The notes below the pieces were generated by a model, which worked only from the letters and a program-made list of their open reading frames with translations, was not told where the DNA came from and did no database searches. A stretch of 64,000 nt of DNA, taken from positions 108,752 through 172,751 of the IMG/VR virus record IMGVR_UViG_3300032053_000002. The stretch is one strand, 5' to 3'. Positions 2,742 through 26,178 of the stretch are shown here, one piece after another (the stretch's first letter is position 1; every line of letters starts with the position of its first letter). The stretch comes from a virus. A program made the position numbers and the translations under genes.

Positions 2742-4244
2742 CTATTTCGAATCCAAAACATCTCGTACCCGTTTAAGTATAGTCAGTGGAGTAACCGGTT
2801 TTTCAATAAAATTAATATTTTCGTGTAGTATTCCATAATGTACTATTGTATTATCAGTATATCCTGACATATATAATGTTTTAATTTTTGGGTATTTTTT
2901 GATTAGATTTTCTACTAATTCTACTCCATTCATTTTTGGCATAACGACATCAGTTAATACAATGTCGATTGGAACATTAAGTGTTTCCACTTTTTCTAAT
3001 GCGATCACACCATTTGAAGCCATAATTACGGTATATCCAGAATTTTCTAAACGGTCTTTTATAAGATTTCTAACTTCTAGTTCATCTTCTACTAATAATA
3101 CTGTTTCGGTTCCTCTTATATCGTTTTCATTTATTTTATCAACCAAAAAGCGTTTTACGGCAATATCATCAGTTGAAGGAAAATAAATATAAAATGTTGC
3201 TCCGTGCCCAGGTTCACTTTCTGCCCAAATATGTCCATTACTTTGTTTAACAATGCCGTATACCACAGGCAAGCCAAGACCGGTTCCTCTTCCCAATGGT
3301 TTAGTCGTAAAAAATGGTTCAAATAATCGATCCTTTACTTCTTTAGTCATTCCTACGCCAGTATCTGAAATAGAAATCAAAACAAATGAACCTCTTTTAT
3401 CAAATGGTTCGATGGATTCAACGTTTTCAGTTTTTATTACCAATTTTCCCCCATCTGGCATAGCATCAATCGCGTTTATACAAATATTTATTAAAACTGA
3501 TTGAAATTGAACCGTATCTATTTTAATATTTTTAATATCTGGGGATAGATTTAAAGAAAAATCAATGTCTTCTTTTATAAACTGACTTAAAAAATCTTTT
3601 TGTTCGGATAAAAATTGATTTGGGTCAACAGTTTCCATTTTCATCATTTGTTTTTTACTAAATGCTAAAAGTCGTTTTACAAATTTTTCTGCCCGTTCAC
3701 TCGCACGAAAAATTTTTCCAACTTTAACTTGTTCATTTGAATCTGGAACTAATTTATTCATTAGCTCTTCGCTATATCCTTTTATAACGGTTAAAATATT
3801 ATTAAAATCATGTGCGATACCGCCCGCTAATAAACCAACGGCTTCTAATTTAGAAGTATTTTTTAATTGGTCTTCTAAAACAGTTTTTTCATTTTCAAGG
3901 CACGTTATATCTCTAACATAAACAATCCCAAGCGTTTCATTGTCATGATTAAAAAATTTTGCATATACTTCGCATGAAAATGAACTACCATCTTTTTTTC
4001 TATTAATAGTTCTAGTAAAGAATTTTCCTGTTTTTTTACCGATTTCCATTAATTTAGGCAGAGTCATTTTATAATATTCTTCCGAAGTTAAATCATGTAC
4101 ATTTAATATAGATTTAAATTCTTCGCGTGTATATCCGTATAATTCAATGGCAGTTTGATTACAATCTAAAATAGTACCATCTAATTTTTCTAAAAAAATT
4201 GCGTCCGGTGACGTATCAAGTATTAAATCAAAAAATCTTTTCAT
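2742..4244 (-). CDS. hybrid sensor histidine kinase with C-terminal receiver domain (PAS - HisKA - HATPase_c - REC)
   Basis: 500 aa; PAS-like N-term; H-box HDFNNILTVIKGY; G-box ISDTGVGM...GTGLGL; receiver with LLVEDE...D(TDVVMPKMNG) phospho-acceptor Asp. Confidence 0.8.
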   Translation of the reverse strand: MKRFFDLILDTSPDAIFLEKLDGTILDCNQTAIELYGYTREEFKSILNVHDLTSEEYYKMTLPKLMEIGKKTGKFFTRTINRKKDGSSFSCEVYAKFFNHDNETLGIVYVRDITCLENEKTVLEDQLKNTSKLEAVGLLAGGIAHDFNNILTVIKGYSEELMNKLVPDSNEQVKVGKIFRASERAEKFVKRLLAFSKKQMMKMETVDPNQFLSEQKDFLSQFIKEDIDFSLNLSPDIKNIKIDTVQFQSVLINICINAIDAMPDGGKLVIKTENVESIEPFDKRGSFVLISISDTGVGMTKEVKDRLFEPFFTTKPLGRGTGLGLPVVYGIVKQSNGHIWAESEPGHGATFYIYFPSTDDIAVKRFLVDKINENDIRGTETVLLVEDELEVRNLIKDRLENSGYTVIMASNGVIALEKVETLNVPIDIVLTDVVMPKMNGVELVENLIKKYPKIKTLYMSGYTDNTIVHYGILHENINFIEKPVTPLTILKRVRDVLDSK

Positions 4245-10720: not shown

Positions 10721-11195
10721 ATATTTTATTCAGTTTTATAATGTCTTCTTTAGTTAAAATCGGCCCGGTCCGGGCTTGAAAATCGGTGAATAATATCCTA
10801 TTTTTATCCTGTATGGCGAATTTATGCATTAAAGATACGACATATTGCTGCATTTTCGCCATTTCATCCGAACCATCTTTACTATAAACGGTTGCGAGAT
10901 AAAGGTTATTTAACCTGTACCATATATAAAATCTATTGCATATTTTTAAGTATTCGTCCATTGATTGTGCGACTTTTTTTACTCGTATACAATAATCTGG
11001 TCTGTCATAATATTCATTTAAGAAAATTATTTTTATCAATCCCCCAGGATCTAAAGAAATGTAAACATTAGTTATGGCGACATCATCTACTTTATATTCA
11101 TATACGTCCCACTGGGTAATCGTGGCGACCTTTCCCGTAGAATCTTTCACTATTTCACTACGACCACCAACTTTTGTTAAAGTTTTATTTTCCAT
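10701..11195 (-). CDS. paralog-family protein (CNRFYIWYRL, C-terminal LNKIYAKLRN)
   Basis: 164 aa. Confidence 0.6.
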   Translation of the reverse strand: MENKTLTKVGGRSEIVKDSTGKVATITQWDVYEYKVDDVAITNVYISLDPGGLIKIIFLNEYYDRPDYCIRVKKVAQSMDEYLKICNRFYIWYRLNNLYLATVYSKDGSDEMAKMQQYVVSLMHKFAIQDKNRILFTDFQARTGPILTKEDIIKLNKIYAKLRN

Positions 11196-11697
11196 ACGGC
11201 GGTCTATATATTTTATAAAGTTTATTTAAAAGTTTAACTTCGTTGGGGACTAGTCCCAATTTTGAGTGGTGTTCTATGTGGTACGGAATTTTATTCAATA
11301 TTCCACCGCGCGGACATTTCACAAAAAGGTGTTTTTTTAAATTTTCAACATACCGGAGGTTCTCTTCGTGTATTCCAAGTTCGTGTCTGGTTAGTTCATT
11401 AACTACACTATAATTAGACATCATAACAGACAATAATTGTAGTCTATACCAAATATAAAATACATCACACGCGACGTTTAAATTACCGGTAATAGTTTGA
11501 TGTGGTCTCGGAGTTATTTTGATACTATAACTTTGGTCGCCTATAATATCGTTTAATATCTGGATTCGAATTACCCAACTATTGTTGTGATTTTGGCTCA
11601 AATAAACACGAGTTAGAAAGTTGCCGTTAGTATCGTAATTGTACTCGAATAAATCTTCGTCTCGCTCGTGTCTAATATAAACTAATTTTTTATCCAT
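11185..11697 (-). CDS. paralog-family protein (CDVFYIWYRL, C-terminal LNKLYKIYRP)
   Basis: 170 aa. Confidence 0.6.
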   Translation of the reverse strand: MDKKLVYIRHERDEDLFEYNYDTNGNFLTRVYLSQNHNNSWVIRIQILNDIIGDQSYSIKITPRPHQTITGNLNVACDVFYIWYRLQLLSVMMSNYSVVNELTRHELGIHEENLRYVENLKKHLFVKCPRGGILNKIPYHIEHHSKLGLVPNEVKLLNKLYKIYRPPYGK

Positions 11698-11774: not shown

Positions 11775-11890
11775 TATATTTCGCAACCATATTTATTAAC
11801 TTCTCGCTCGCAACCATATTTATTAACTTCTCGCTCGCAACCATATTTATTAACTTCTCGCACGCAACCACATTCATTAATCTTTCGTTA
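11775..11890. repeat. 27-bp direct tandem repeat, 3 near-perfect + 1 degenerate copy (cgcaaccatatttattaacttctcgct)
   Basis: Visible by eye; the track ORF 11713..11895 (MVASEKLIN x3) is produced by this repeat. Confidence 0.8.
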
Positions 11891-12044
11891 CGCAACGAAC
11901 ACTTTTCTTTAATCTAATCTCAATATCTATTAATTTTTCGCATAGTGGGCACTTAAATGGAAACCAATTCCAATTCATCATCGTATTTTTTTCACCGCAG
12001 TGAGGACACGTAAAATCGGCCGTTATCTGTTTAATTTTAATCAT
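11877..12044 (-). CDS. small zinc-ribbon protein, 55 aa (CPHCG...CPLCE)
   Basis: ATG at 12044, TAA at 11877-11879; two CxxC pairs; below the 60-aa track cutoff. Confidence 0.3.
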   Translation of the reverse strand: MIKIKQITADFTCPHCGEKNTMMNWNWFPFKCPLCEKLIDIEIRLKKSVRCVTKD

Positions 12045-13826: not shown

Positions 13827-14031
13827 CTGTTATTTTTTGTTGTAAATTACTATAATAGTAACGGCCGTTATTTCAAATATAATACTTAAAGTCAACTGTT
13901 ATTTGTTATAAACTATTATAATGATGACGGTTACCTGTTATACTGCTAATAGGTTATCGTTAGGGTATTGTATTCTCTATTTATTATTAGTGTATTATTA
14001 TTTTAAATTTTAATTTAGGGGAGAAAATATT

Positions 14032-14727
14032 ATGATTAATAAACCGATTATTTATAATGGTTCGCTTATATATGCAGATTTATCAAATCTGGATAATATT
14101 ATTGCAGCTCCAAATTTTACCGGTAGCAGTTGCAGTACCGGCAGCGTCAATGCTATACGAGTAACTCTCAGTCACATGGAACGATTTACATTTCCCACGG
14201 CTGTTATGGATATTCCGGTATCGTGGTCGTTGCTCGAACAAACTATTACGTTAGGCACATTTCTATCGCAAAGTTTGTGGCATAATAACATTATACAGGC
14301 TGCATATCCAGGGCATCAGATGCATATGAGACTTCAATTTAAAAGTTCTACTGACATGAGCGATTATTCGCCAACAATGTCTTTTTGCGTCGAACCTTAT
14401 CCTGTAATGACGTTAACTGATCCCACCCCCGGAGAAGAAATCCCTTCAATTGCTAGTTGGGGTCAGGTAGGATTTAGTTGGGGAGCCTTTTCGGCCAGAT
14501 TTGGTCATTGCAGCGGAAGTATATGGTTTCGTTATCAGATTCAGGTGGATAATAATAGTGATTTTTCTTCTCCACTGTTTAATGAGTACTGGACTACTCC
14601 GTATACTAATGTTAAATCTATAGCACTTGGAACTTATTATTGGAGAGTTCGGGCTTTAAAAGAATACGCCGCGGTTTGGTATTGCCAACCGTGGTCTTCA
14701 GTACGAAGTTTTACGGTTATTCCTTAA
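14032..14727 (+). CDS. hypothetical protein, 231 aa, plus strand, with fibronectin-III-like C-terminal segment (GTYYWRVRA)
   Basis: GGGGAG RBS 8 nt upstream; composition noticeably less AT-rich than neighbours; followed by a strong terminator. Confidence 0.6.
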   Translation: MINKPIIYNGSLIYADLSNLDNIIAAPNFTGSSCSTGSVNAIRVTLSHMERFTFPTAVMDIPVSWSLLEQTITLGTFLSQSLWHNNIIQAAYPGHQMHMRLQFKSSTDMSDYSPTMSFCVEPYPVMTLTDPTPGEEIPSIASWGQVGFSWGAFSARFGHCSGSIWFRYQIQVDNNSDFSSPLFNEYWTTPYTNVKSIALGTYYWRVRALKEYAAVWYCQPWSSVRSFTVIP

Positions 14728-14737
14728 ATTTGGAATT

Positions 14738-14776
14738 AAAGATCCCCGCTTTTTTTCACGCGGGGATTTTTGTTTT
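14738..14776. terminator. rho-independent terminator, probably bidirectional (ATCCCCGC-loop-GCGGGGAT with flanking T/A runs)
   Basis: 8-bp GC-rich inverted repeat followed by TTTTTG on plus strand and preceded by AAAG. Confidence 0.65.
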
Positions 14777-14884
14777 CTTGGACAGATTTTCCGAAAAATT
14801 TTTAACTCCTTGACTTGAATTGTCGCCAGATGTGCCTCGTAAAATTCGTTTTTTATTAATAACTGCAAAATATGTTTATTGATA

Positions 14885-15075
14885 ACTGCGAAATACTTCA
14901 GGCGAAGTTATCTCTGCAAAATACTTCAGGCGTCCGTTCCGATGACAGAAGAATGATGTCAGCAAAATACTTCAAATGATGTCAGCAAAATACTTCAGGC
15001 GTCCGTTCCGATGACAGAAGAATGATGTCAGCAAAATACTTCAGGCGTCCGTTCCGATGACAGAAGAATGTGCGA
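14885..15075. repeat. iteron-like array: 17-mer GCAAAATACTTCAGGCG x5 within ~46-bp units x3
   Basis: Direct inspection; ORF-free region. Confidence 0.75.
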
Positions 15076-15380
15076 TACCCCTTGACCCGCTCGAGCGCAT
15101 TGCGCATCTCGGACTTCCTGACTTTCTACGCCTGAGACACACCCACCAAGACCACAAGACAGGCCATGTGAAACCCTTCACAAACTGCCATACCCGCACG
15201 ACTACCCCCGCACTAAAAGGCACTCGCCGCTCGTCTACTGGCACGTCCAGAAAACGTTCTCTGATGCGGGTTGACATCGTTATACCGCTCCAGCTCCGCT
15301 CCAGCTCCGCTCCAAATAGATATGGAGATTTTTTGCCCTGGAAAATAACTTACAGTTTGCAAAGAGTTATATAGTGGGAA

Positions 15381-15992
15381 TTATAAGTTAATTTTTTTTA
15401 TAGTGACATTGATTACAGGTGTTTGACGTAATAGCATATGATGATACTTATTCAGTGAGTCAATAGAGTTTTGTGTTAGTGTATCATCACTGATAAGTTT
15501 GTCGCGGATTTTTAGTATACTTTCCAATATATGAGGGCGAGTCCGTGATATGTCGACCGTAGCCGCTACGGTCGCGACGTTTTTATAACCGCTATCTATA
15601 TTCTTGTATAATTTTTCTATCTTAGCTAATAGATATATTTTCTTTATATAGCGAGTCGCCGCGGGGTGTTCCTTAATTATATGTTTAGTGAAATTGGGTC
15701 TATCGAAAAAGAATACAGTTTCCACATTTTCAATCAGCTTGAAATACTTGGGATCATCTTTAAGGATGCCGCCGTTCGCAATACGATATATTTCTTCATG
15801 AGTACCTGTTAACTTTATTCTACTCGCCCCTTCTTTAATCTCGGCGACGGTATTAAATACTTTCAGATTTTTCGGGAATGGAACTTCATATGATTCACCG
15901 ACGTTAAAATGCGGTTCCCCATCTGAAATCTCTATCATTCCCACCGTAGTAAAACGATAGCCGCTATCATTTATAAACTTATATGCCTTCAT
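15381..15992 (-). CDS. paralog-family protein, long form (N-terminal MKAYKF...IEISDGEPHF)
   Basis: 203 aa; N-terminus paralogous to 8055..8609. Confidence 0.55.
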   Translation of the reverse strand: MKAYKFINDSGYRFTTVGMIEISDGEPHFNVGESYEVPFPKNLKVFNTVAEIKEGASRIKLTGTHEEIYRIANGGILKDDPKYFKLIENVETVFFFDRPNFTKHIIKEHPAATRYIKKIYLLAKIEKLYKNIDSGYKNVATVAATVDISRTRPHILESILKIRDKLISDDTLTQNSIDSLNKYHHMLLRQTPVINVTIKKINL

Positions 15993-16416
15993 TGTTATAC
16001 TTTCTATTTATCTTGTTCAACTTTTTAACTTCGTCGCCAGTCAATCTAGACCGATTAAACTTGGTGCCTTGTATTGTACCAGGCGCCAATAAGTCACGCG
16101 ACGCAGGAGTTTTGCCAGCAGTAGAGAGAACTATAAATCTCGCTATAATTTCACCCACATAATCATGCGCCATCTTTGATCCAGGTCTGGTTGTATCATT
16201 CATACGTCCCAATGTAGCGTACAGTTTCAGTAATCTCCGATAGATATTATACCCTTTATACAAACTTATAAACAGCTGCTTAGCAGTAGTTAAATTCCGC
16301 GATGCATAGGTTTTTGGTATATCTTTTAATGTTAGTTCCGATTCCACCAATGAATATGTCGCCAGTACTTCACCGTTTTCCACGTACAGGTATTTAATCC
16401 ATTTTCCAGGTAACAT
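15979..16416 (-). CDS. paralog-family protein (C-terminal LNKINRKYNNEGI)
   Basis: 145 aa. Confidence 0.55.
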   Translation of the reverse strand: MLPGKWIKYLYVENGEVLATYSLVESELTLKDIPKTYASRNLTTAKQLFISLYKGYNIYRRLLKLYATLGRMNDTTRPGSKMAHDYVGEIIARFIVLSTAGKTPASRDLLAPGTIQGTKFNRSRLTGDEVKKLNKINRKYNNEGI

Positions 16417-16421
16417 ATTCC

Positions 16422-18674
16422 TTAATTCCTTTTAATCGTCGAGAACAAAGAATTCAACTCTTTAGCAAGCGGAACCAGTTGATCAACCCTGATGAAGCGA
16501 CTATCCTTACCGTACATTTCGCGGAAAGTTACAGCGGAACTAGACGTGGTATCTACGCGATCACTTACGAAAAAGGACATAACCCGAATACCGTTTGCTC
16601 TCATTTTATCTACGGCTTCTTTTGTCAGAGTTTCAATATCCTTAATCCCATTATAGCTGTTAGGTTCACCGTCGCTGATGTTGATGAAGTACGATACTTT
16701 TCCGACACTACTATTAAGTATTTCTTTCATCGTCGCCTCGAAACACAATCCTTCGGGAGTACCACCAGTGGAACACATCATAGAGAAGTATTTACGAAAC
16801 TTACCGAAACTGTCTTTGCGACTATCATACGCAAGCAGAACCGTCGGCGCTTGCATACCATTAGTAACGTAGTAATCCCACCGAAGAGAAATCATAACTT
16901 TTAAGTTATTCACCTGAGTAGCAGCGTAGGCTAAAGCCGACACCATAGTCATCGTCCTATTCCACTTATCACCCCCCATAGACGATGACGCGTCAATACT
17001 AATATGTAGCATCGCTTCACCGAAAGTGTCCTTAGTAACCTGTGAAAAGACAGATTCCAAATCATATCCCAGTCCGTGAAGTAACCGTTTTTCCAGATGG
17101 CCGGTTTGTTTACGAATAAGTTTAGTAACCTTTGTCTCGTTACGAATCTGTAAGCGATTCGCCAACATCTTGCCTAACCGAATTCCGAGATTGACATACG
17201 TTTCAGACGGCTTACGATTGGAGTTATGAAATAAACTATCGCGCATCAAATGCATCGACTCGTCGTTCAGTTCGCGAATGACAACTACTTGTACACCTTC
17301 TTTACTTTCACCATGACTGTCAGATTCAGTACCGGTAGCGCCATCACCAACTTTAGTTTTTTTCCCACCAACGTTCTCAACCGTCGTACCGGACGCATCC
17401 ATTGCGTTAATTATTTCGTGCTCGTCTTTAGTGATAGCACCTTTCTTTACTTTTCCATTTACCAGTTCTTTTATTTCTTCAATAGCCTTTTTCAACTGTT
17501 TTTTCTGTTCTTTTGTCAGTTCATCTCCAGATTGTGGCGTTCCGTCTCCGACATTAACCATATCACCGTCTTGCAACTTATCTATTGGGTTATCGTGTTT
17601 CGAATCACCGTCATCTTTTTTATCACCGTCTTTGCTGTCGCCAGAGTCTTTGTCTTTTTTATCACTACCGTCAGAGTCTTTATCTTTTTTATCACTGTCG
17701 CCAGAACCGCCACCACTATCACCAGATTCTTCTCCACCATCACCGCTATCGCCAGATTCTTTTTCATCACCACTATCTTTTGTCTGCGACTCATCACCGG
17801 TTTCCGTAGGTTTATTTAACGGATGGTCAACCGGAAGCGGGTCAATGTTTTCTAACACAACCGTAAAAATCTTTTCGGCGACTATACGAGAATCGGACGT
17901 ACTTTCCAGGCGGTCGATATTGTCAATATCAAATATGTTACTGATTTTATCTAAACCAGGAAGTGCATTCAGGTCAATGTTACTTTTATCAGACGCCAGA
18001 CCGTAGAAGCGAAAATGATAACTTTCAAGATTTCTCTCGCGATAGTAACTTGATTTCAATCCAAGAGCAACTATTTTCGCGTTCCAATATCTATTATACA
18101 ACGATGTATAATATGGTCTATAACCGATAACTTTGTCCATCATAATACGGTCAATGCGACGATCTTCAATAAAGTTCCAGTAGTCAAAGAACAACTTTTC
18201 CAACTCTTCTTTATTGGTTATGTTTTTTGTAGCGGCTAAAGCCGTGATTGATGGGGTTACATTTATAGTTCCAGTTTTAAGAAACTCACTGTACAATATG
18301 TGACTGGACTCGTGGAGTGCTAACCCGACAACCGTATCAAAATCTTTGTTAGTAACGTTAGCACTAATAAAGACATTTTTACTGTCGGTCATACTATGAT
18401 CTTGAACGTTAAACAATACTTTGATTTTTTTGTCGCGAGTCGCGATGTGGACAAACCTGGCGACCGCTCTGCGAATAGACGACATTTCGATAAGCGATTT
18501 CTTATCTTTTTCTTCTGGGATAGCACGTAGCCAGTAACGAGAATACAGATTGGCGGTAGAGTAATCTTCATCTTCCCGAAAACCAAATCGCGTCTTGAAG
18601 AAATCTTTCGCCATTTCCTTATCGTATGCTTCGTCGGCTTTATTTTTGCCACCGAATAAGTTTTTTATACTCAA
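16422..18674 (-). CDS. CobT-like von Willebrand factor A (vWA) domain protein with long acidic low-complexity linker; TTG start
   Basis: 750 aa; C-terminal vWA/MIDAS-type domain (HISIDASSSMGG...), central D/S/G/K/E-rich repeat (DSGDS..., KKDKDSDGSDKKDKDSGDSKDGDKKDDGDSKHD); AAGGAA RBS before TTG; adjacent to a MoxR/CobS-like ATPase as in many large phages. Confidence 0.7.
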   Translation of the reverse strand: MSIKNLFGGKNKADEAYDKEMAKDFFKTRFGFREDEDYSTANLYSRYWLRAIPEEKDKKSLIEMSSIRRAVARFVHIATRDKKIKVLFNVQDHSMTDSKNVFISANVTNKDFDTVVGLALHESSHILYSEFLKTGTINVTPSITALAATKNITNKEELEKLFFDYWNFIEDRRIDRIMMDKVIGYRPYYTSLYNRYWNAKIVALGLKSSYYRERNLESYHFRFYGLASDKSNIDLNALPGLDKISNIFDIDNIDRLESTSDSRIVAEKIFTVVLENIDPLPVDHPLNKPTETGDESQTKDSGDEKESGDSGDGGEESGDSGGGSGDSDKKDKDSDGSDKKDKDSGDSKDGDKKDDGDSKHDNPIDKLQDGDMVNVGDGTPQSGDELTKEQKKQLKKAIEEIKELVNGKVKKGAITKDEHEIINAMDASGTTVENVGGKKTKVGDGATGTESDSHGESKEGVQVVVIRELNDESMHLMRDSLFHNSNRKPSETYVNLGIRLGKMLANRLQIRNETKVTKLIRKQTGHLEKRLLHGLGYDLESVFSQVTKDTFGEAMLHISIDASSSMGGDKWNRTMTMVSALAYAATQVNNLKVMISLRWDYYVTNGMQAPTVLLAYDSRKDSFGKFRKYFSMMCSTGGTPEGLCFEATMKEILNSSVGKVSYFINISDGEPNSYNGIKDIETLTKEAVDKMRANGIRVMSFFVSDRVDTTSSSAVTFREMYGKDSRFIRVDQLVPLAKELNSLFSTIKRN

Positions 18675-18704
18675 TCTATCTTTCCTTCTTTAATTGTATA
18701 CCTA

Positions 18705-18776
18705 AATATACCACCCCCCGGCGTATCAGTCAACTGTTATTTTAACTATTTTTTTAACCATATGAATTATTTCACA
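18705..18776 (-). promoter_or_regulatory. sigma70-like promoter TTGACT-N17-TATATT with UP-like AT block and upstream near-palindrome TATGAATTATTTCACA
   Basis: Reverse complement TTGACT gatacgccggggggtgg TATATT. Confidence 0.6.
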
Positions 18777-18852
18777 TGACCGTTCCTGGAAAAAAAGAAA
18801 TACCCCCTGCACATAATGTATAGGGGGTATTTCGCCTTCTTAGGGAAGGATT

Positions 18853-20160
18853 TTACATTAAGTCATCTTGATGAAACAGGTCGCCAGATCCAGCCACGAC
18901 CGGTTCAACTTCTTCTTTTTCCTTTTTCTCTTTTTTCGGCTCTTTGACTACATCTTTTTCGAACAGCGGCTCGGCGTCGAGGTTACTATATTGCTGAATG
19001 AACTGCAACAGATGTGTTCTTTCGGAATCGGCACCACCTTCACCGGAAAACATATTCACCACACTGGCTTCCATCACTTCACTGAAAGTAAACCCATCGT
19101 TCAACATGCTAACCTGCGCGACAGTGGAGCGGATAGAAATCATGGTAGTCAGGGTTGGCGCTTCACTGGTAGCCTCTTTACGAGTATACCCGGCAACAGC
19201 AACAATACCCTTAATAAGTTTCTGGTTAATTTCAGGATATAAAAGTTTTAACAACTTGAATTCTTCGGCTTCAGTAGGAATATCCATTTCAATCATGACC
19301 GGAAAACGGTCTTTCGTAGCACGATCAATGATACGAGTAGCGGTGTATTCACCACCGACGTTAGCGGTCGTAAAGAACGTTACTCCAGGAGCGACATTGA
19401 TTACAGGTGTTTTCGGGTCTTCATCCAACCGCACATAACGCTGATCCGGATCGAGAATCGTCATAAGGATATTTTCAGCATCAGGATTGGCACGAGTTAT
19501 TTCGTCCAAGAGAATTACAGCACCCGGTGTCGTAATGGCTTTGATAAACTCAGACTTGACGAAGTAAGTACCGGTTTCCTTATTGAAGTGTGTGTTACCG
19601 ATTAAAGTAGCACGAGCGTCCTGTGTAGCCCCAAGATTAAACTTGAAGAACGGGCGACCCAGAACTTTACCGATAGTGCGACCGGTAAGTGTTTTACCGA
19701 ATCCACTATAACCCGTAAAGATGATATTCTGGCCACGAAGAGCAGAGTGCACCGCATACTTCCATTTCAGTTCAGCCAATATGAGGGTCTTCGGTTTCAG
19801 TGAGATTGCGTTCTTGATAGCAGTACGTACATCTTCATCAGATGGGGTTACGTATCCTGTATATTCAGATGGAGTAGTCGCCTCGACTGTGGGGTTGGCG
19901 ACAACCGAAGTAGGCATAAGTGTAGAACCGTTACTATATTCATAGTCAACGGGAACTTCATCGGCTTTCAAACGACGCCAGAAAACATTACCGGCCTTCG
20001 ATACCACTTTTCCTAAGTAGATACCGTGGTCAGCCGCATGGCGACGAGCGCCGTAAGGTATTGGTTCGCTATACATCTTCTCCGTCTTGATTTCAATCGG
20101 GTTCAGATGAGAACCATCGCGAACGACTTTAACGATTACTAAAAATTTTGGTGATTTCAT
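18853..20160 (-). CDS. CobS-like / MoxR-family AAA+ ATPase
   Basis: 435 aa; Walker A GYSGFGKT, Walker B ILLDEITRANPDAENILMTILD, sensor motifs; partner of the vWA protein. Confidence 0.75.
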   Translation of the reverse strand: MKSPKFLVIVKVVRDGSHLNPIEIKTEKMYSEPIPYGARRHAADHGIYLGKVVSKAGNVFWRRLKADEVPVDYEYSNGSTLMPTSVVANPTVEATTPSEYTGYVTPSDEDVRTAIKNAISLKPKTLILAELKWKYAVHSALRGQNIIFTGYSGFGKTLTGRTIGKVLGRPFFKFNLGATQDARATLIGNTHFNKETGTYFVKSEFIKAITTPGAVILLDEITRANPDAENILMTILDPDQRYVRLDEDPKTPVINVAPGVTFFTTANVGGEYTATRIIDRATKDRFPVMIEMDIPTEAEEFKLLKLLYPEINQKLIKGIVAVAGYTRKEATSEAPTLTTMISIRSTVAQVSMLNDGFTFSEVMEASVVNMFSGEGGADSERTHLLQFIQQYSNLDAEPLFEKDVVKEPKKEKKEKEEVEPVVAGSGDLFHQDDLM

Positions 20161-20193
20161 GTAACTTTATTCCTTCCCTAAATTGTATACTTA

Positions 20194-20265
20194 AATATAC
20201 CAAATCCCGGCTTACTAGTCAACTGCTATTTTAACTATTTTTTCAGCCTTGTGAATTATTTCACT
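20194..20265 (-). promoter_or_regulatory. sigma70-like promoter TTGACT-N17-TATATT plus upstream TGTGA-N6-TCAC half-palindrome
   Basis: Reverse complement TTGACT agtaagccgggatttgg TATATT ... GGAAGGA SD ... ATG. Confidence 0.6.
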
Positions 20266-20545
20266 TGACCTTTTTCTTAGCGAATTCTGAAAACGTATCA
20301 CTCTTTCGAGCGACAGTCGCTACTTTCATTAACCGCTTACCGAACACCCGATCACAATCTTTGTCAGCAAGAGTTTTCTCTATTCTTTGCTGAACTTTCG
20401 CCACAAGCGCCGGGTGGATGTTAAAAGACGTAACCTTATATCCCCATTCCCGAACTTCAAACTTGAATATGCCCACCTTTTTAGGCATTCGTTTCAGTAT
20501 CGTTAAAGTCAGACGATTATCCTGTTCCTTAAATATCGCTTTCAT
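20261..20545 (-). CDS. hypothetical basic protein, 94 aa
   Basis: ORF track. Confidence 0.45.
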   Translation of the reverse strand: MKAIFKEQDNRLTLTILKRMPKKVGIFKFEVREWGYKVTSFNIHPALVAKVQQRIEKTLADKDCDRVFGKRLMKVATVARKSDTFSEFAKKKVK

Positions 20546-20752
20546 TTATAGCGCTCCCATTCTTTTTAATTTGTTAATTGCGGTATGCAGTTCGTGGCAA
20601 AGATATTTATGCGCAACAAACTTTTCAACATCCTCTTCTTTTCGAGCACGGTGAACTATCGTATAGCGTTTGGATTCCTTAACCCACCCAAATACCAGCC
20701 ATTCGCGATGCCCCCTCAATGTCTTAAATAATCTTGGTCTTCCCGATTTCAT
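20546..20752 (-). CDS. hypothetical protein, 68 aa
   Basis: ORF track. Confidence 0.4.
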   Translation of the reverse strand: MKSGRPRLFKTLRGHREWLVFGWVKESKRYTIVHRARKEEDVEKFVAHKYLCHELHTAINKLKRMGAL

Positions 20753-21201
20753 TATACTTGTTCCTTGTTATATTTCATGTATATTTTATTTAATTTTGTC
20801 GCCACCTTTTCACCTATCGGAATCTTCTCATCGGATGAAATGGCTCTTAATACGGTTAGTATCAACATGCACGACTCTACCTCGTCACGATCTTCCCCCA
20901 CAGCAATTAACTGTAATTTTTTCAGCTTCTCATATAGTATCGTAAAATCTTTTAATTCCACGACTTTCGCTTTGTAAATGTATAAAATTTCGCCTCTTTT
21001 GTATTTATCTACTTTCGGCGTATTATTAGGATCAGAATGTCGTATATCAAATACCATACTAAAAGTACCGCTGGCATTCCCATACAAATCGACTGTGCCC
21101 GACCAGGGTTCGGCAGGTTCTATCAAAGAACCACCTAACCCCTGCTTCTCGTACCCGTCTTTTTTATCGAATTCTATTATCTTGTATACCATATCAATCA
21201 T
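20752..21201 (-). CDS. paralog-family-related protein (C-terminal LNKIYMKYNKEQV)
   Basis: 149 aa; has the C-terminal motif but lacks the FYIW core. Confidence 0.5.
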   Translation of the reverse strand: MIDMVYKIIEFDKKDGYEKQGLGGSLIEPAEPWSGTVDLYGNASGTFSMVFDIRHSDPNNTPKVDKYKRGEILYIYKAKVVELKDFTILYEKLKKLQLIAVGEDRDEVESCMLILTVLRAISSDEKIPIGEKVATKLNKIYMKYNKEQV

Positions 21202-21451
21202 TTATCAGTAAAAGTTTCATCCCATCGATGGAAACATATCTCCAGCCATGCGTTTCTCCTTCACCATCTTTGTCGGCTCCAGAAAATATAAAGGTTCGTT
21301 TTTCTCCAGTACTCTCGTTCAACACAGTAACACAATTGTATAAGTGATGGTTTTTCACACGACCACTCAAATCACTCCATTCCCATGCCAGTGTCCGGGT
21401 TTTCTTATCCCACCCATTTTTCATCAGTTGGTTATTTACAGTGATTATCAT
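21194..21451 (-). CDS. hypothetical protein, 85 aa
   Basis: ORF track. Confidence 0.45.
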   Translation of the reverse strand: MIITVNNQLMKNGWDKKTRTLAWEWSDLSGRVKNHHLYNCVTVLNESTGEKRTFIFSGADKDGEGETHGWRYVSIDGMKLLLIND

Positions 21452-21452
21452 A

Positions 21453-21623
21453 TTATTTGATCCTCTTTGATGTTAAAAAACTGTAGATGACGTACATAAC
21501 TGCGGCGAATGCGAACAGCATCGGTTCCGTTATCAGTAAGTAAGTCAGTATCGCGACAACAAATATCGTTTCAAATGTCGCCTTCAATATCATTTTTTTA
21601 TTCACTTTACTTTTCATATTCAT
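21453..21623 (-). CDS. small membrane protein, 56 aa (below track cutoff)
   Basis: ATG 21623, TAA 21453-21455; MNMKSKVNKKMILKATFETIFVVAILTYLLITEPMLFAFAAVMYVIYSFLTSKRIK; consensus promoter directly upstream. Confidence 0.35.
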   Translation of the reverse strand: MNMKSKVNKKMILKATFETIFVVAILTYLLITEPMLFAFAAVMYVIYSFLTSKRIK

Positions 21624-21652
21624 ATATTACATCTTTCCGAATTATCAGTCAA
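21624..21652 (-). promoter_or_regulatory. sigma70-like promoter TTGACT-N17-TAATAT
   Basis: Reverse complement TTGACT gataattcggaaagatg TAATAT. Confidence 0.5.
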
Positions 21653-21718
21653 ATTATATTTTAACTATTTTTATTCTTTGTGAAAAATTTCACTTTATTT
21701 GTGTCCTATTTTTTAATT

Positions 21719-22087
21719 TTAATGCCAGTTAGTCTGATATACGGAACTTCCACTCCATACGTACGCGCGTTCAAAAGAAGAGATCGATATAAACTCGCGA
21801 CCATCTTTGGTAAGTTTTACCTTTTTCATTTTATTTTCCATACGAGCATAGTCATTACCGGCATTTAGGTCAGGTATAACGTAGTCGCTTAAACCGGTTT
21901 CCCTCTTCACGATCTTCTGCCCCACTCCGACAACCTTCACAGACTTAGCGGTCACGGCAACCACTTTATAAAAGTTTACGTTGGTCTGTTCATAACCCCA
22001 GCAACTTACGAGAATGTCATTTACTTTCATTATTATTTCCCTTTTAGTTTTAGTGTCAACATAAATGGATACAACCGCGTCAACCAC
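21719..22087 (-). CDS. hypothetical protein, 122 aa
   Basis: ORF track. Confidence 0.5.
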   Translation of the reverse strand: MVDAVVSIYVDTKTKREIIMKVNDILVSCWGYEQTNVNFYKVVAVTAKSVKVVGVGQKIVKRETGLSDYVIPDLNAGNDYARMENKMKKVKLTKDGREFISISSFERAYVWSGSSVYQTNWH

Positions 22088-22230
22088 TTTTCTACTTCTT
22101 CCAAAAGTGTTTCGTCAGAAACCGTTGATTTTGTCCGTGGTCTTAGCCAAGCTGCGAGTTCTTTTTTTATTTCGTCGAATGGACGAGTAGTGTCAATCGT
22201 AAACGGTGCGTCATTTTTTGATTTACTCAT
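22033..22230 (-). CDS. hypothetical protein, 65 aa
   Basis: ORF track. Confidence 0.35.
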   Translation of the reverse strand: MSKSKNDAPFTIDTTRPFDEIKKELAAWLRPRTKSTVSDETLLEEVEKWLTRLYPFMLTLKLKGK

Positions 22231-22325
22231 TTTATTTATGTCCTATTTTTTTACTTACCAGTGAATGTATCGTATAGCACATCGCCAGATTCGCGGCGAC
22301 AACTACTAAAACAACGACTACCATT

Positions 22326-22691
22326 TTAATTAGTCCTCGACTTGGATGCACGTAACCAGTCAGTATTGACTACTACCGGAACGACATCAGTGATCTTACC
22401 ATTAGCAACTTTCGCTAACTGACCAATATATTTTTTGATTCTACGTTTGATGATGGCGAACTGCTTGTCAGTGATAAACCCAAACCGTGAATAGAAGTTA
22501 CCGATGCTGGTAAATATCTCACCATCGACACCAGTGAACCCCACTCCATTATCTTCGGTCGTACCAACGAATGATTTTTCGCCACGAGTCTGAAGAGAAT
22601 AGATTCTCAGGAAACCCTTGAATATGGCGTAGTCATTGTCTATCAGCATATTCGCTATATCTTCTTTATTATACTTTGGTTTTGTTTTCAT
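22326..22691 (-). CDS. hypothetical protein, 121 aa
   Basis: ORF track; consensus promoter at 22700-22728. Confidence 0.5.
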   Translation of the reverse strand: MKTKPKYNKEDIANMLIDNDYAIFKGFLRIYSLQTRGEKSFVGTTEDNGVGFTGVDGEIFTSIGNFYSRFGFITDKQFAIIKRRIKKYIGQLAKVANGKITDVVPVVVNTDWLRASKSRTN

Positions 22692-22699
22692 AATAGTAT

Positions 22700-22728
22700 A
22701 ATATACAATTCCTCAGTATAACAGTCAA
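22700..22728 (-). promoter_or_regulatory. sigma70-like promoter TTGACT-N17-TATATT
   Basis: Reverse complement TTGACT gttatactgaggaattg TATATT. Confidence 0.55.
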
Positions 22729-22754
22729 ATTATTTTTTAACTATTCTTACAGAG

Positions 22755-22883
22755 TGTGAAATTATTCACAAGATCGTCGCCGTGACTGGCGACTTGCCAT
22801 CCCGAGCCTTGTGAAGTTTTTCACAAAGTAGCGGCTCAGCTTGACGCGAGCAAGCGGCCGGCCGCGTTGTGAAATTTTTCACA
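22755..22883. promoter_or_regulatory. cluster of three perfect CRP-like palindromes TGTGA-N6-TCACA (22755-22770, 22810-22825, 22868-22883) with GC-rich hairpins between them
   Basis: TGTGAAATTATTCACA, TGTGAAGTTTTTCACA, TGTGAAATTTTTCACA; also GTCGCC-gtgactg-GGCGAC hairpin and 12-bp palindrome GCGGCCGGCCGC. Confidence 0.6.
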
Positions 22884-22899
22884 AGCGACTGTAATAAAA

Positions 22900-23255
22900 A
22901 AGTCCTACGTCCGTGACTTCCATGTAGCCTCGGGTTGCGATCCCGTTCGTCATGGCCTCGTCACGTAATTCGTAGGACTTTTCTCACCTAAGTCGTTTCC
23001 GACTGTCCACATTACCTGCTAGCCGGCGGGATAGTTGGATGGGCGACGACTCCCATCATCTCATACCGACACATACGGCCGGTGCGCCTTTCTTCCTTAG
23101 ACCACAACTATTTTCGGTGATTCTCGCGATTTCTGCCGAATTCGCGATACTTTTATTCATTTCTCAAAGAACAAAAGAGTGCCCCGTAGGACACCCCCGA
23201 ACGTTCTCCCGGGGAGTGTCCTCCACGCGGGTATACGTTCCATATTTGATATACT
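22900..23255 (-). ncRNA. candidate ~350-nt structured non-coding RNA (GC-rich, ORF-free, own promoter and terminator-like 3' stem)
   Basis: Consensus promoter at 23256-23284 fires into this segment; no credible ORF on either strand; 3' end forms long stem GTCCTACG...CGTAGGAC followed by a U-run (plus-strand aaaaaaGTCCTACG at ~22905); GC content far above surrounding DNA. Confidence 0.4.
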
Positions 23256-23284
23256 AATATACAACTTCTTGGCGAGAAAGTCAA
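23256..23284 (-). promoter_or_regulatory. sigma70-like promoter TTGACT-N17-TATATT
   Basis: Reverse complement TTGACT ttctcgccaagaagttg TATATT. Confidence 0.55.
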
Positions 23285-23292
23285 CTGTTATT

Positions 23293-23472
23293 TTAACTAA
23301 ATGGGGAATCTCGATCTTCTAACTCGTCGAGCGTACGCTTGAAATCTTCGAGCGTCTCAATATATTTCAACTTCAGCTGCTTGTTTTCTTTAAGCAATCG
23401 CTCCACTTCCTTCTTCAACTCGGAGATGGTTTTCAGCATCTCGATCTTATTCTTTAGTTCAGCGGTAGTCAT
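23293..23472 (-). CDS. small coiled-coil protein, 59 aa (below track cutoff)
   Basis: ATG 23472, TAA 23293-23295; MTTAELKNKIEMLKTISELKKEVERLLKENKQLKLKYIETLEDFKRTLDELEDRDSPFS. Confidence 0.35.
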   Translation of the reverse strand: MTTAELKNKIEMLKTISELKKEVERLLKENKQLKLKYIETLEDFKRTLDELEDRDSPFS

Positions 23473-23498
23473 ATCTTATCCTTATTTTTAAGTCTTAG

Positions 23499-23723
23499 TT
23501 ATAGAACAAAAAAAACCGCTCGGTTCTTTCCAACCTTTTCATACGTCAACACCCTTGAAGGGCGGAAATCGCTCAAATAACCGGCGAGTTCATCCAAAGA
23601 ATCGAAATACTTCGGCGAAAAAAACTTATCAGGATCGGGGTCTTTTTCCAATACCCATCGCTTGTTGAGCATTTTGCGCCGATTTTTGACCTTGTTGGCG
23701 AAATAATGGTCGGTGGTTTTCAT
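23499..23723 (-). CDS. hypothetical protein, 74 aa
   Basis: ORF track. Confidence 0.45.
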   Translation of the reverse strand: MKTTDHYFANKVKNRRKMLNKRWVLEKDPDPDKFFSPKYFDSLDELAGYLSDFRPSRVLTYEKVGKNRAVFFVL

Positions 23724-23753
23724 ATATTGTTTCCTTTTTTTATATTTTAATCT

Positions 23754-23829
23754 TGGGGTGCACGGTGAGATTCGAACTCACGCTCCGCGGGTCACAGCCG
23801 CGTAATGCTACCGCTACATCACGCGCACC
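23754..23829 (-). tRNA. tRNA-His (anticodon GTG) with G-1:C73 and encoded CCA
   Basis: Reverse complement G-GTGCGCG..anticodon stem CGCGG/CCGCG loop CTGTGAC..T-arm GTGAG TTCGAAT CTCAC..CGTGCAC-C-CCA. Confidence 0.85.
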
Positions 23830-23836
23830 ATATATT

Positions 23837-24058
23837 TTATCCTGAGAAAGCTTTTTCCAATGTTATTCGTTGCAACACTTCCCAGTATAACTTCGGCATT
23901 GCCTTCTTATCGATCATTTCCGATATATTCCGAGCCGATCCGAATTCGTCTTCAAAAGCCTGTTCGGACTTCTCAATGTACTTTTTTACTTCTTTTAAAA
24001 ACGTCATGTTACTCTTCACGGCGAAACTCTCCTTAATTTTTATACTATAATATAACAC
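23837..24058 (-). CDS. hypothetical protein, 73 aa
   Basis: ORF track; consensus-type promoter at ~24049-24078 (spacer 18). Confidence 0.45.
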   Translation of the reverse strand: MLYYSIKIKESFAVKSNMTFLKEVKKYIEKSEQAFEDEFGSARNISEMIDKKAMPKLYWEVLQRITLEKAFSG

Positions 24059-24086
24059 CTATCAGCTTACCAGTCAACTGCTATTT

Positions 24087-24524
24087 TTACTTATTTTTTG
24101 CGTATGCATTTAGTGCCCATCTCCACATTTCGTTTAAAAACCCAACGTCTTTTATACTGAGTTTGCGGGTTTTTAAAAATTCTTTATAAAATAACGTTAT
24201 TTCCGTTGCTGATTCGGTACACCCGACATTCTTTAAACTACTAATTAAAAGCTCAATTTTTTCGCTGATTCTTTTTATTTTCTCTTCGGGCGACTCTACT
24301 CTTTCTAGTACGAAAAATGGAAAATTATATCCGCTATCAAGATGAATTCCTTTACTTCCGCTACAAATAAACGTTATGTCGCCCTCTTCACCGACATATT
24401 TGTCCATCATAGAAGTCCAAGTATTATCCCATCCATTTTCATGATTATGAGCAATCATTACAACTTTTACTCTGTCGCCAACTTTGAATCCGGCAGCTTT
24501 TTGTTTGATTTCGTATTCACTCAT
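24087..24524 (-). CDS. hypothetical protein, 145 aa; paralog of 24521..24955
   Basis: Shares KVGDRVKVV...W.NTW N-terminal block and C-terminal FLNEMW motif with neighbour. Confidence 0.55.
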   Translation of the reverse strand: MSEYEIKQKAAGFKVGDRVKVVMIAHNHENGWDNTWTSMMDKYVGEEGDITFICSGSKGIHLDSGYNFPFFVLERVESPEEKIKRISEKIELLISSLKNVGCTESATEITLFYKEFLKTRKLSIKDVGFLNEMWRWALNAYAKNK

Positions 24525-24955
24525 TTTTTAATATACGCTTTCCATATTGCATTTAAATACTCAACATCGTCTATACTGAATTTATGACTTTTTTTAAATC
24601 GCGCGTACATTTTATACACTTCGTTAGCAACACGTTTGCATCCGTTATTCTGTAAACCACTAATTAAACGCTCAAACTTTTCACTTACTCTCTTTATTTT
24701 CTCATCGGACGACTTCACTTTTTTCAGTACGGAAGGTGGGAATCTGTATGTCGGGCCTTTACGGGGAATACTTTCTAAACGAATTCCTGCGGTCTTATGA
24801 ATATCGGATATAACCATTATTTTGCCAACACTTTTATTCATCTCAAGTACCCATGTATTCCGCCACTCACTCGTGTAGCTCTCAGCAATACCGGTAACTT
24901 TTACTTTGTCGCCGATTTTGAACTGGGTGGGGGTTCTCTTTTTTCCTGGCGACAT
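24521..24955 (-). CDS. hypothetical protein, 144 aa; paralog of 24087..24524
   Basis: KIGDKVKVTGIAESYTSEWRNTW; C-terminal YLNAIWKAYIKK. Confidence 0.55.
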   Translation of the reverse strand: MSPGKKRTPTQFKIGDKVKVTGIAESYTSEWRNTWVLEMNKSVGKIMVISDIHKTAGIRLESIPRKGPTYRFPPSVLKKVKSSDEKIKRVSEKFERLISGLQNNGCKRVANEVYKMYARFKKSHKFSIDDVEYLNAIWKAYIKK

Positions 24956-24957
24956 CT

Positions 24958-25512
24958 CTACACACTCTCCAAATATGCGTGATTTAACCCGCCTTTTTTA
25001 TTACTGTATATAGACACTTCTGCATCAAGTTCACTGGGAGTATTACTTACCCAACCGAAGAACTTCTTTCTACAATCACTGTGACGACAGAAGTCAACTT
25101 GCGGACCGTCAACCGGTTTACCACAGTAGTGGCAATACCTTTCTTCACGAAACATTTCTGTTTTCGGAAGTAAACGTTTCCATAGGGAAATATCCTTCCG
25201 CTTATACGTTTTCTTCACCACTGCGGGACTTCCAAATATAACTTCACCATGCAACTTAGCGAGATAAGGTCTTATCCATTTTACCGAGTATTCCACCACG
25301 GCGACTCGCTTATAAGTGTATTTATAATCGAACAACTTATCCATAGCGTCTTGCTGTTTTCTAATCAACTCCAGCATACCTGAATCATCTTTCACAGTAA
25401 CGGTAATCCCCAGCTCACTATTCTTGAAAACTAGGAAGGTACGCCCGACTTTATACGCAAAAGATACTTTCGCGTCTCCGTATGTCTCGTAAAACTTTTT
25501 TTCGTTCATCAT
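24958..25512 (-). CDS. hypothetical protein with C-terminal Cys-rich zinc-binding segment, 184 aa
   Basis: CHYCGKPVDGPQVDFCRHSDCRKKFFGW. Confidence 0.5.
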   Translation of the reverse strand: MMNEKKFYETYGDAKVSFAYKVGRTFLVFKNSELGITVTVKDDSGMLELIRKQQDAMDKLFDYKYTYKRVAVVEYSVKWIRPYLAKLHGEVIFGSPAVVKKTYKRKDISLWKRLLPKTEMFREERYCHYCGKPVDGPQVDFCRHSDCRKKFFGWVSNTPSELDAEVSIYSNKKGGLNHAYLESV

Positions 25513-25534
25513 TATTCTTTTCTCCTATACCTAA

Positions 25535-25563
25535 AATATACCACTTCTCAGCGTATCAGTCAA
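25535..25563 (-). promoter_or_regulatory. sigma70-like promoter TTGACT-N17-TATATT
   Basis: AGTCAA at 25558-25563 and AATATA at 25535-25540 on plus strand. Confidence 0.55.
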
Positions 25564-25664
25564 GAACTATTTTCGCTATAGCGGCATTCCGGACGGCAAT
25601 GCGGTCGTAACTAGAGCCCTTCGTGAACTTTTTCACATACGGTCTGTACGTTTTCTGTAAGTGG

Positions 25665-25745
25665 TTTTTCAATCCGCTCGCTCCTCTCGGTTGCAATCCG
25701 CTCGCTCCTCTCGGTTGTCAATTCGCTCGCTCCTCTCGGTTGTAG
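25665..25745. repeat. ~23-bp direct repeat x3 (ccgctcgctcctctcggttgcaat)
   Basis: Direct inspection, GC-rich ORF-free island. Confidence 0.8.
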
Positions 25746-25854
25746 GGGGCAACTCGGTAGACGTGTCAGGCGAGTTCAGAACCGTGCATGCAAATAGGCA
25801 GCCTGAAGTGTGTTCGTCGTGTGGGGGGGTTCTTGGCGGGAGTTTGTGGTTTGT

Positions 25855-25912
25855 GCGGGAGTTCTTGCGAGAGTTTGCGCGGGAGTTCTTGCGGGAGTTT
25901 GCGCGAGGAATC
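25855..25912. repeat. ~22-bp direct repeat x2.5 (gcgggagttcttgcgagagttt)
   Basis: Direct inspection. Confidence 0.75.
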
Positions 25913-26084
25913 GTGGAGAAGTGGGGGCATGGGGGTGGCGGTGCTTCCGACGAGTAGCAATTGCGCATCGGCAATACCTGCGACCCACTATTATAATATT
26001 ATCCGAATATCAAAAAGGCGTGGATTATTTATTTATAATAGGGAAGTGATTATCAATTCCAGCAAGTTGTATCAAATAGGCGAG

Positions 26085-26165
26085 TGATATGCAGCGATAT
26101 GCAGTGATATGCAGCGATATGCAGTGATATGCAGTGATATGCAGTGATATGCAGCGATATGCGCT
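26085..26165. repeat. 10-bp tandem repeat gatatgcagY x8
   Basis: Direct inspection. Confidence 0.85.
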
Positions 26166-26178
26166 GTAATATATATGG

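Follow-up and report, generated by a model that had tools for sequence, protein, structure and literature searches.

In a 64,000-nucleotide stretch of viral DNA (hereafter the window; positions 108,752 to 172,751 of IMG/VR record IMGVR_UViG_3300032053_000002), two convergent transcription units are separated by a gap of 653 nt, which holds an array of direct 17-bp repeats followed by a GC-rich island. This feature is real, non-coding and lineage-specific. We read it, tentatively, as a lineage-specific cis-acting array of protein-binding sites next to a conserved, operator-bearing tract at the junction of convergent transcription, a reading that we prefer while holding it short of probable.

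According to this reading, the left half of the locus would consist of direct binding sites for a sequence-specific factor, most simply a DNA-binding protein, with GCAAAATACTTCAGGCG as the core and AAATACTTCRGG as its minimal form. Unequal recombination between cores would reshuffle their number, their spacing and the spacers themselves, with at least three copies retained, and the array would behave as a set of titrating or loosely cooperative sites. The right half would be a conserved, unstructured C-rich tract with one copy of an 18-bp operator that recurs in phase with promoters elsewhere in the window, and it would bind the same dimeric regulator, Rex-like or CRP/FNR-like, as those promoter-phased copies. 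With its richness in C, the + strand of this tract may in addition contribute to keeping antisense transcription out of the - strand operon. The outcome of binding would be transcriptional control or insulation rather than replication.

The window (35% GC) comes from a metagenomic contig of 292,723 bp, and its source fits an uncultivated huge phage with a genome of about 293 kb. No DNA-level match to it was found among GenBank phages by blastn against a phage database. Almost all genes of the window lie on the - strand. A greedy selection of open reading frames (ORFs) of our own, to be taken as an estimate and not as a gene annotation, puts the coding share of the window at about 93% and leaves 11 gaps longer than 200 nt; with so much of the DNA coding, a retained gap of about 650 nt is unlikely to be inert. 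On the left, the gap is bordered by a + strand gene for a 231-aa protein with Fn3-like relatives (14032-14727), and on the right by a - strand operon whose last gene encodes a 203-aa ORFan (15381-15992). The larger ORFs, about 40 of about 105 candidates, were scanned for domains. The window encodes a hybrid histidine kinase, a CobS-like AAA ATPase, a large conserved protein of unknown function and a sugar-modification cluster; the remaining ORFs are mostly ORFans.

The repeat array and its variation among strains

The 17-mer GCAAAATACTTCAGGCG is present in exact form at 14916, 14985 and 15031, with one mismatch at 14888 (GCGAAATACTTCAGGCG) and as a truncated copy at 14962 (GCAAAATACTTCA); a further partial core, CTGCAAAATA, lies at 14863-14872. 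The five copies reported in the preliminary description of this DNA are therefore all present. The three units of about 46 bp reported with them had to be redrawn: two are perfect, one, at 14905-14951, is older and divergent at its 5' end, and a half unit of 23 bp comes in addition. Tandem Repeats Finder resolves three overlapping arrays at the locus (Table 1). When up to three mismatches are allowed, the 17-mer has six matches in the 64 kb, against 0.24 expected, and none of 100 shuffled sequences reached six. Spacings between successive cores are 23, 28, 46, 23 and 46 bp. Comparison of the two copies at 14888 and 14916 shows 18 of 19 core positions to be the same, as opposed to only 7 of 21 flanking positions.

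We collected seven strain-level variants, all of them independent assemblies, through exact-protein look-ups and cluster members; a search with the 203-aa protein gave no match in IMG/VR or the metagenome collection. The locus is present in all seven, and the sequence of the window is reproduced by independent assemblies. Four MEGAHIT contigs (L011, L015, L016 and L019) span the array. Logan unitigs break inside it, as expected of a repeat, so a copy number read from any one short-read assembly is uncertain. L011 has the sequence of the window minus one 46-bp unit, L015 is 69 nt shorter (one unit and one half unit), and L016 has the copy number of the window. In L019 the flanks are 99.3-100% identical to those of the window and the array itself is rebuilt, with 115 of 219 array positions missing. 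It retains only three cores, GTAAATACTTCAGGCG, GCAAATACTTCGGGTAT and GCAAATACTTCAGGCG, spaced by 26 and 35 nt.

At least three cores are kept in each of the five variants in which the array is spanned, and yet these roughly 200 nt vary more than any other part of the locus in strains that are about 99% identical. Retention of the cores despite such reshuffling suggests that what counts is how many sites there are and not how exactly they are arranged. The 17-mers, described earlier as iteron-like, do behave like a selected motif, in that three or more cores persist while spacers, spacing and copy number change. If the core is a binding site, the locus would open a way into the regulation of an uncultivated lineage of huge phages, the genes next to it all being ORFans, and would be a natural example of an array selected on site number and not on geometry.

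In more distant relatives, whose versions of the large 750-aa protein are 34-41% identical to that of the window, the syntenic place is a stretch of small ORFs that evolves fast, with neither array nor GC island. The comparison with related genomes proposed in the preliminary description thus gives a divided answer, with the locus present in seven strain variants and absent from distant relatives. Its suggestion of a recent insertion gained no independent support: the locus is lineage-specific, but recency does not follow, since the locus is in all seven variants, is flanked by no duplication and has no match elsewhere. Searches of the IMG/VR, metagenome and genome collections with the 17-mer and with a 20-mer of the island returned only isolated chance matches, and a foreign origin was set aside on these results together with the negative blastn search of the phage database.

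Other explanations for the repeats as such were also discarded. The array does not qualify as a CRISPR (clustered regularly interspaced short palindromic repeats) array, which has 23-50-nt repeats and unique spacers, because the core here is 17 nt long and the spacers, of 10-29 nt, are identical between the 46-bp units. A diversity-generating retroelement (DGR) was rejected because the window has no near-copy of the island resembling a variable repeat (VR) and the scanned ORFs include no reverse transcriptase, and a phage attachment site (attP) because no integrase is encoded nearby. No repeat partner of the island was found in the 231-aa gene or elsewhere in the window.

The + strand 231-aa Fn3-like gene to the left of the locus is itself a mosaic hot spot. 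In L010, which has about 90% DNA identity to the window, homology stops at 14634, inside the 3' end of this gene, and an unrelated - strand ORF follows. In L016 an allele of 224 aa and high divergence takes its place, and homology to the window sets in again right at the terminator (14742).

The GC-rich island and the recurrent palindrome

The island has 53-58% GC in 100-nt windows, compared with 35% over the whole window, and its + strand GC skew falls to -0.41. Within the 80 nt at 15138-15217 the + strand contains 42% C and 12% G. Only two ORFs overlap the island, one of 105 aa on the + strand (15057-15374) and one of 78 aa on the - strand (15041-15277). Neither has a match in Pfam or PHROG. 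With phmmer, the 105-aa ORF gave only two low-complexity matches among 1.84 billion representative proteins. An 11-nt indel found in three strains shifts the frame of the 105-aa ORF and deletes the start of the 78-aa ORF. A coding island was rejected on these grounds, and the earlier description of about 300 bp of GC-rich DNA with overlapping junk ORFs holds good for 15071-15335, the two ORFs being without credible homologues. The short repeat said to end it is present as well, in 2.7 copies rather than three.

Across the variants the island is 99.2% identical (neighbouring genes, 97.7-100%). About 250 nt are invariant in all seven apart from two patches, TC to CT at 15091-15092 and the 11-nt indel near 15276, which define its two haplotypes. 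In five of the seven variants a second inverted half-core copy, CGCCTGAG, can be seen at about 15090-15097, a weak, post-hoc observation like that of the first one (Table 1).

No excess of structure was predicted for the island. Compared with shuffled sequences, its two strands have z scores of -0.4 (+) and +0.4, and array plus island scores -1.1. The test can detect structure in this genome, since a GC-rich gap at 22745-23250 scores -6.2.

What the island does contain is a palindrome, which came to notice when an island 20-mer was matched in a Lysinibacillus genome and in a contig from a metagenome. The matched DNA is unrelated, and both matches are copies of TGTGAA-N4-TTCACA. In the window the extended form TTGTGAA-N4-TTCACAA occurs nine times at up to two mismatches, against 0.69 expected. 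It equals the published consensus of the Rex operator (ROP), TTGTGAANNNNTTCACAA (PMC5355995, PMC3441419), from which the island copy, ATGTGAAACCCTTCACAA, is one base off; this copy also fits the CRP/FNR-type operator TGTGA-N6-TCACA. Most copies of the palindrome lie upstream of phage promoters, with centres 28, 37, 38 and 69 bp from the centres of the -35 elements, that is, in one helical phase. Because of this shared phase, an operator acting at the DNA level is favoured.

The promoters concerned form a family of their own. There are 13 perfect copies of TTGACT-N17-TATATT, all on the - strand between 368 and 35255, with a conserved upstream element, TTAAAATAACAG; eight extended copies cluster at 18.7-25.6 kb. 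Judged from sequence, the phased palindromes suggest that a redox-sensing or cAMP (cyclic AMP)-type regulator may control an early gene set of a huge phage. The locus by itself is an ordinary kind of feature, and the promoter family, the network of promoter-phased operators and a structured RNA candidate of about 500 nt, described below, are the more useful by-products of its analysis.

Table 1. Positions of repeats, operator-like sites and transcription signals at and around the locus.
Feature	Position	Strand	Remarks
Strong hairpin terminator AAAGATCCCCGC / GCGGGGATTTTT	14738..14771		After + strand 231-aa gene; inverted repeat, terminator-like Rfam near-hits
Promoter-like TTGACT ... TAAAAT	14810..14845	+	Non-canonical 24-nt spacer; not called by sigma-70 scan
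AT-rich 23-bp repeat x1.9, TTTATTRATAACTGCRAAATA	14852-14895	+	Carries partial and one-mismatch cores; missing from L019
Core-motif array of GCAAAATACTTCAGGCG	14888..15047	+	Minimal core common with L019, AAATACTTCRGG
46-bp unit array with one intercalated 23-bp half unit	14905..15070	+	Each unit with a TGACA...TGTCA hairpin
Perfect 23-bp duplication	14952-14997		Tandem Repeats Finder
Perfect 46-bp unit x2.1	14975-15070		Tandem Repeats Finder
Conserved non-coding GC-rich island	15071..15335		+ strand C-rich, G-poor, unstructured; two haplotypes
Inverted copy of core 3' half, TCAGGCG	15129..15135	-	Weak, post-hoc observation
Palindrome ATGTGAAACCCTTCACAA	15166..15183		One mismatch from TTGTGAA-N4-TTCACAA; invariant in all seven variants
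Other palindrome copies, in addition to that at 15166	9689, 20249, 21678, 22754, 22809, 22867, 25621, 56609		
CCGCTCCAGCT tandem repeat x2.7	15285..15314	+	11-nt period, YC-rich; copy number the same in all variants
Weak terminator-like hairpin CTCCA-N8-TGGAG, then ATTTTTT	15310..15335	+	

Weighing the possible roles of the locus

Several observations weigh against the protein-binding reading. The island palindrome differs from known Rex and CRP/FNR operators in that it has no consensus partner promoter within 200 nt, and the scanned ORFs of the window include neither a Rex nor a CRP gene. The flanking 231-, 203- and 145-aa proteins gave no DNA-binding or Rep match in Pfam (to E 10), PHROG or PADLOC, and the AlphaFold2 (AF2) model of the 203-aa protein is unusable (predicted local distance difference test, pLDDT, of 33). 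With that score, and with its Pfam and PADLOC searches empty, the 203-aa neighbour was discarded as a candidate for the binding factor. C-rich, G-poor stretches like that of the island are common on the + strand inside genes, because this strand is antisense to G-rich coding sequence. The island is no more conserved than the neighbouring genes, so selection on it cannot be judged. Hypervariability such as that of the array is equally shown by neutral minisatellites, and the window has four other tandem arrays with unrelated units, so the genome may simply be repeat-prone.

These last points belong to an account in which the locus is a neutral minisatellite with an inert spacer, that is, slippage units in dispensable DNA whose core is common by descent, beside a GC tract that is the decaying remnant of foreign or formerly functional DNA. 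We consider this possible, if rather doubtful. As in the variable-number tandem repeat (VNTR) minisatellites of bacteria and phages, the youngest units are perfectly identical, whole units are gained or lost between assemblies, and mosaic reshuffling between strains goes as far as the rebuilt array of L019. Distant relatives do without the locus, and no promoter, structure, ORF or database match was found for it. The locus departs from such minisatellites in having a discrete core that is far better kept than its flanks, whether old copies or strains are compared, and that stays at three copies or more in every variant while the spacers diverge. Beside the array, moreover, lies a conserved tract with an operator motif that has statistical support; this tract stays at 53-58% GC, against 35% for the genome, and is nearly invariant in seven variants. 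The genome is also compact, with only 11 gaps above 200 nt by the ORF selection given above. A further account, which we think very improbable, makes the array an arms-race decoy, as DNA or as transcribed RNA, that titrates a factor of host defence or regulation; the candidate targets are a nuclease, RNA-guided or sequence-specific, the toxin of a toxin-antitoxin system and a small RNA. Fluctuating selection on copy number and arrangement would then explain why the array changes faster than any other 200 nt among 99%-identical strains, with at least three cores always kept.

The preliminary description had also put forward a replication origin and a regulatory RNA, neither of which found independent support. 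In an iteron-type origin, a phage initiator would bind the repeats and melt the AT-rich DNA at 14846-14895, and the GC-skewed island might stabilise a priming R-loop, its - strand being one that would yield a G-rich RNA. Non-coding arrays of direct repeats are classic at the origins of phages and plasmids, among them lambda ori, P1 oriR and SPP1 oriL/oriR. The locus resembles these in its four to five direct 17-bp repeats, within the range of at least three repeats of about 17-22 bp expected of iterons, in several spacings of 23 or 46 bp, and in an adjoining 50-nt flank that is 80% AT. However, 5.6% of all 50-nt windows are as AT-rich, and L019 lacks the AT-rich repeats altogether. A regular helical-phase spacing of about 22 bp that is kept among close relatives was not found; the spacing is irregular in the window and different again in L019. 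There is no DnaA box (up to one mismatch) in 14700-15400 and a single GATC without any cluster, no integration host factor (IHF) site was seen, and the repeats have no sequence similarity to any known iteron. The scanned ORFs of the window, which covers 64 kb of the roughly 293-kb genome, include no replication or initiator gene and encode instead such proteins as a histidine kinase and sugar-metabolism enzymes. The cumulative GC skew, the check proposed for an origin, falls monotonically without an inflection, apart from a small plateau due to the + strand gene; it should be read with the fact that skew follows the gene strand here. Among strains that are 99% identical, one would not look for an essential origin in the 200 nt that vary most, and distant relatives have no counterpart of the locus. 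We therefore regard an origin at this place as unlikely. An RNA sponge or decoy, in which the repeated 12-17-nt motif of a transcript would sequester a host or phage RNA or an RNA-binding protein, seems to us unlikely to the same degree. As a special case it could mimic a type III antitoxin; these vary in the length and number of their repeats, and phage PhiTE expands pseudo-ToxI repeats to escape ToxIN (PMC5449768), a precedent that the unit expansions in the window would fit. The tandem perfect 46-nt units whose number varies between strains, the layout of a short motif with free spacers typical of sponge RNAs, and the + strand promoter-like hexamers upstream and weak hairpin with U-run downstream all agree with it. 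On the other hand, the unequal L019 units of 26 and 35 nt, in which only the 12-17-nt core is kept, are contrary to the unit-length processing of type III antitoxins, PADLOC detected no ToxN-, CptN- or TenpN-like protein nearby, and Rfam gave no ToxI match even at E up to 10. A mainly Rho-dependent terminator in the island is a role that we take to be still a little less likely. It would comprise a Rho utilisation (rut) site and a pause hairpin, shield the - strand operon from + strand transcription and leave the array incidental. The C-rich, G-poor, unstructured tract of at least 80 nt at the end of a transcription unit, the periodic YC-rich CCGCTCCAGCT repeat and the weak hairpin after it are rut-like, and the same reading also fits a second island at 25.6-26.0 kb, between the end of an operon and the next promoter. 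The likeness is compositional only, as rut sites have no sequence consensus, and comparable C>G stretches lie inside genes. The only known + strand gene is closed off already by the strong intrinsic terminator at 14738-14771, beyond which no promoter on the + strand was demonstrated. A Rho-type boundary role is plausible for the island at 25.6-26.0 kb and possible for that at 15.0-15.3 kb.

The case against a regulatory RNA rests further on transcription and RNA signals. No Rfam family reached its gathering score over the locus. At E up to 10 there was nothing in the island, and elsewhere at the locus only terminator-like matches and one local match to transfer-messenger RNA (tmRNA). The latter, on the + strand at 14828-14912 (model positions 56-140 of 374), scored 13.6 bits (E 0.0026) against a gathering score of 47, ARAGORN found no tmRNA, and we judge it an artefact of the AT-rich repeats. 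No canonical promoter was called at the locus by a sigma-70 scan. Both hexamers of the promoter-like stretch upstream of the array are intact in L019, which has five single-nucleotide polymorphisms (SNPs) around them within 80 nt (14804, 14806, 14809, 14829 and 14846). Inside the units, ATGACA-18-AATACT scores 9 of 12, a level reached by about six chance matches per 2 kb. The probability of being unpaired is 0.49 for the core versus 0.38 on the + strand and 0.37 versus 0.50 on the - strand, so that predicted folds show no clear preference for an exposed core. A sponge for CsrA/RsmA was considered and dropped, as the excess of GGA on the - strand (16 versus 11.4 expected) comes from the repeats alone. 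With an A-tract before it and a T-tract after it, the strong hairpin at 14738-14771 could stop transcription from either side.

Other elements of the window

The GC-rich gap at 22745-23255 (about 52% GC) is ORF-free and lies on the - strand directly downstream of a perfect consensus promoter, AGTCAACTGTTATTTTAAC (23279-23297). It folds at -195 kcal/mol, with the z score of -6.2 mentioned above, and contains three TTGTGAA-N4-TTCACAA palindromes or hairpins together with a long stem, AGTCCTACG...CGTAGGACT. Its only Rfam signal is a sub-threshold match to the skipping-rope family (23031-23105, 21.6 bits, E 0.021). We regard 22.7-23.3 kb as a candidate for a phage non-coding RNA of about 500 nt.

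A second GC-rich island without ORFs occupies 25580-26180, with the end of a 252-aa gene on one side of it and the next consensus promoter on the other. Its GC content is 54%, its + strand is G-rich, and three tandem arrays flank it: 24 bp x3 (25669-25743), 24/12 bp x2.4 (25849-25905) and AGTGATATGC x8 (26083-26162). Its sense (-) strand has the strongest C-rich, G-poor tract of the window (49% C, 11% G), with a 12-nt periodicity, and is rut-like. It gave no Rfam match and no structure signal. Apart from the common palindrome, the first island has no significant local alignment with 25.6-26.0 kb or with 22.7-23.3 kb, and a common origin of the two GC islands was rejected for this reason.

The segment from 14000 to 26000 averages about 41% GC, compared with about 33% on either side. 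The two repeat-flanked islands lie near its edges, at 15.0-15.3 kb and 25.6-26.0 kb, and mirror each other by strand, the left one being C-rich and the right one G-rich on the + strand. The segment as a whole is not a recent insertion, since relatives keep its large 750-aa gene in conserved synteny.

A 27-bp repeat, TCGCAACCATATTTATTAACTTCTCGC, is present in 4.3 copies at 11781-11896, upstream of a - strand gene (11185-11697). On the - strand its unit junctions read TTGCGA-N16-TATGGT and resemble tandem promoter-like elements. Four tRNA-Ser genes (anticodons GGA, CGA, TGA and GCT) cluster at 985-2107 and together read all six Ser codons; a tRNA-His gene stands apart from them at 23754-23828. 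The hybrid sensor kinase, encoded on the - strand at 2742-4244, has PAS, HisKA, HATPase and receiver domains, and genes for NT5C, an SPFH protein and a carbamoyltransferase are found near it. The region at 36-62 kb carries a large cluster of sugar-nucleotide, glycosyltransferase and radical-SAM genes.

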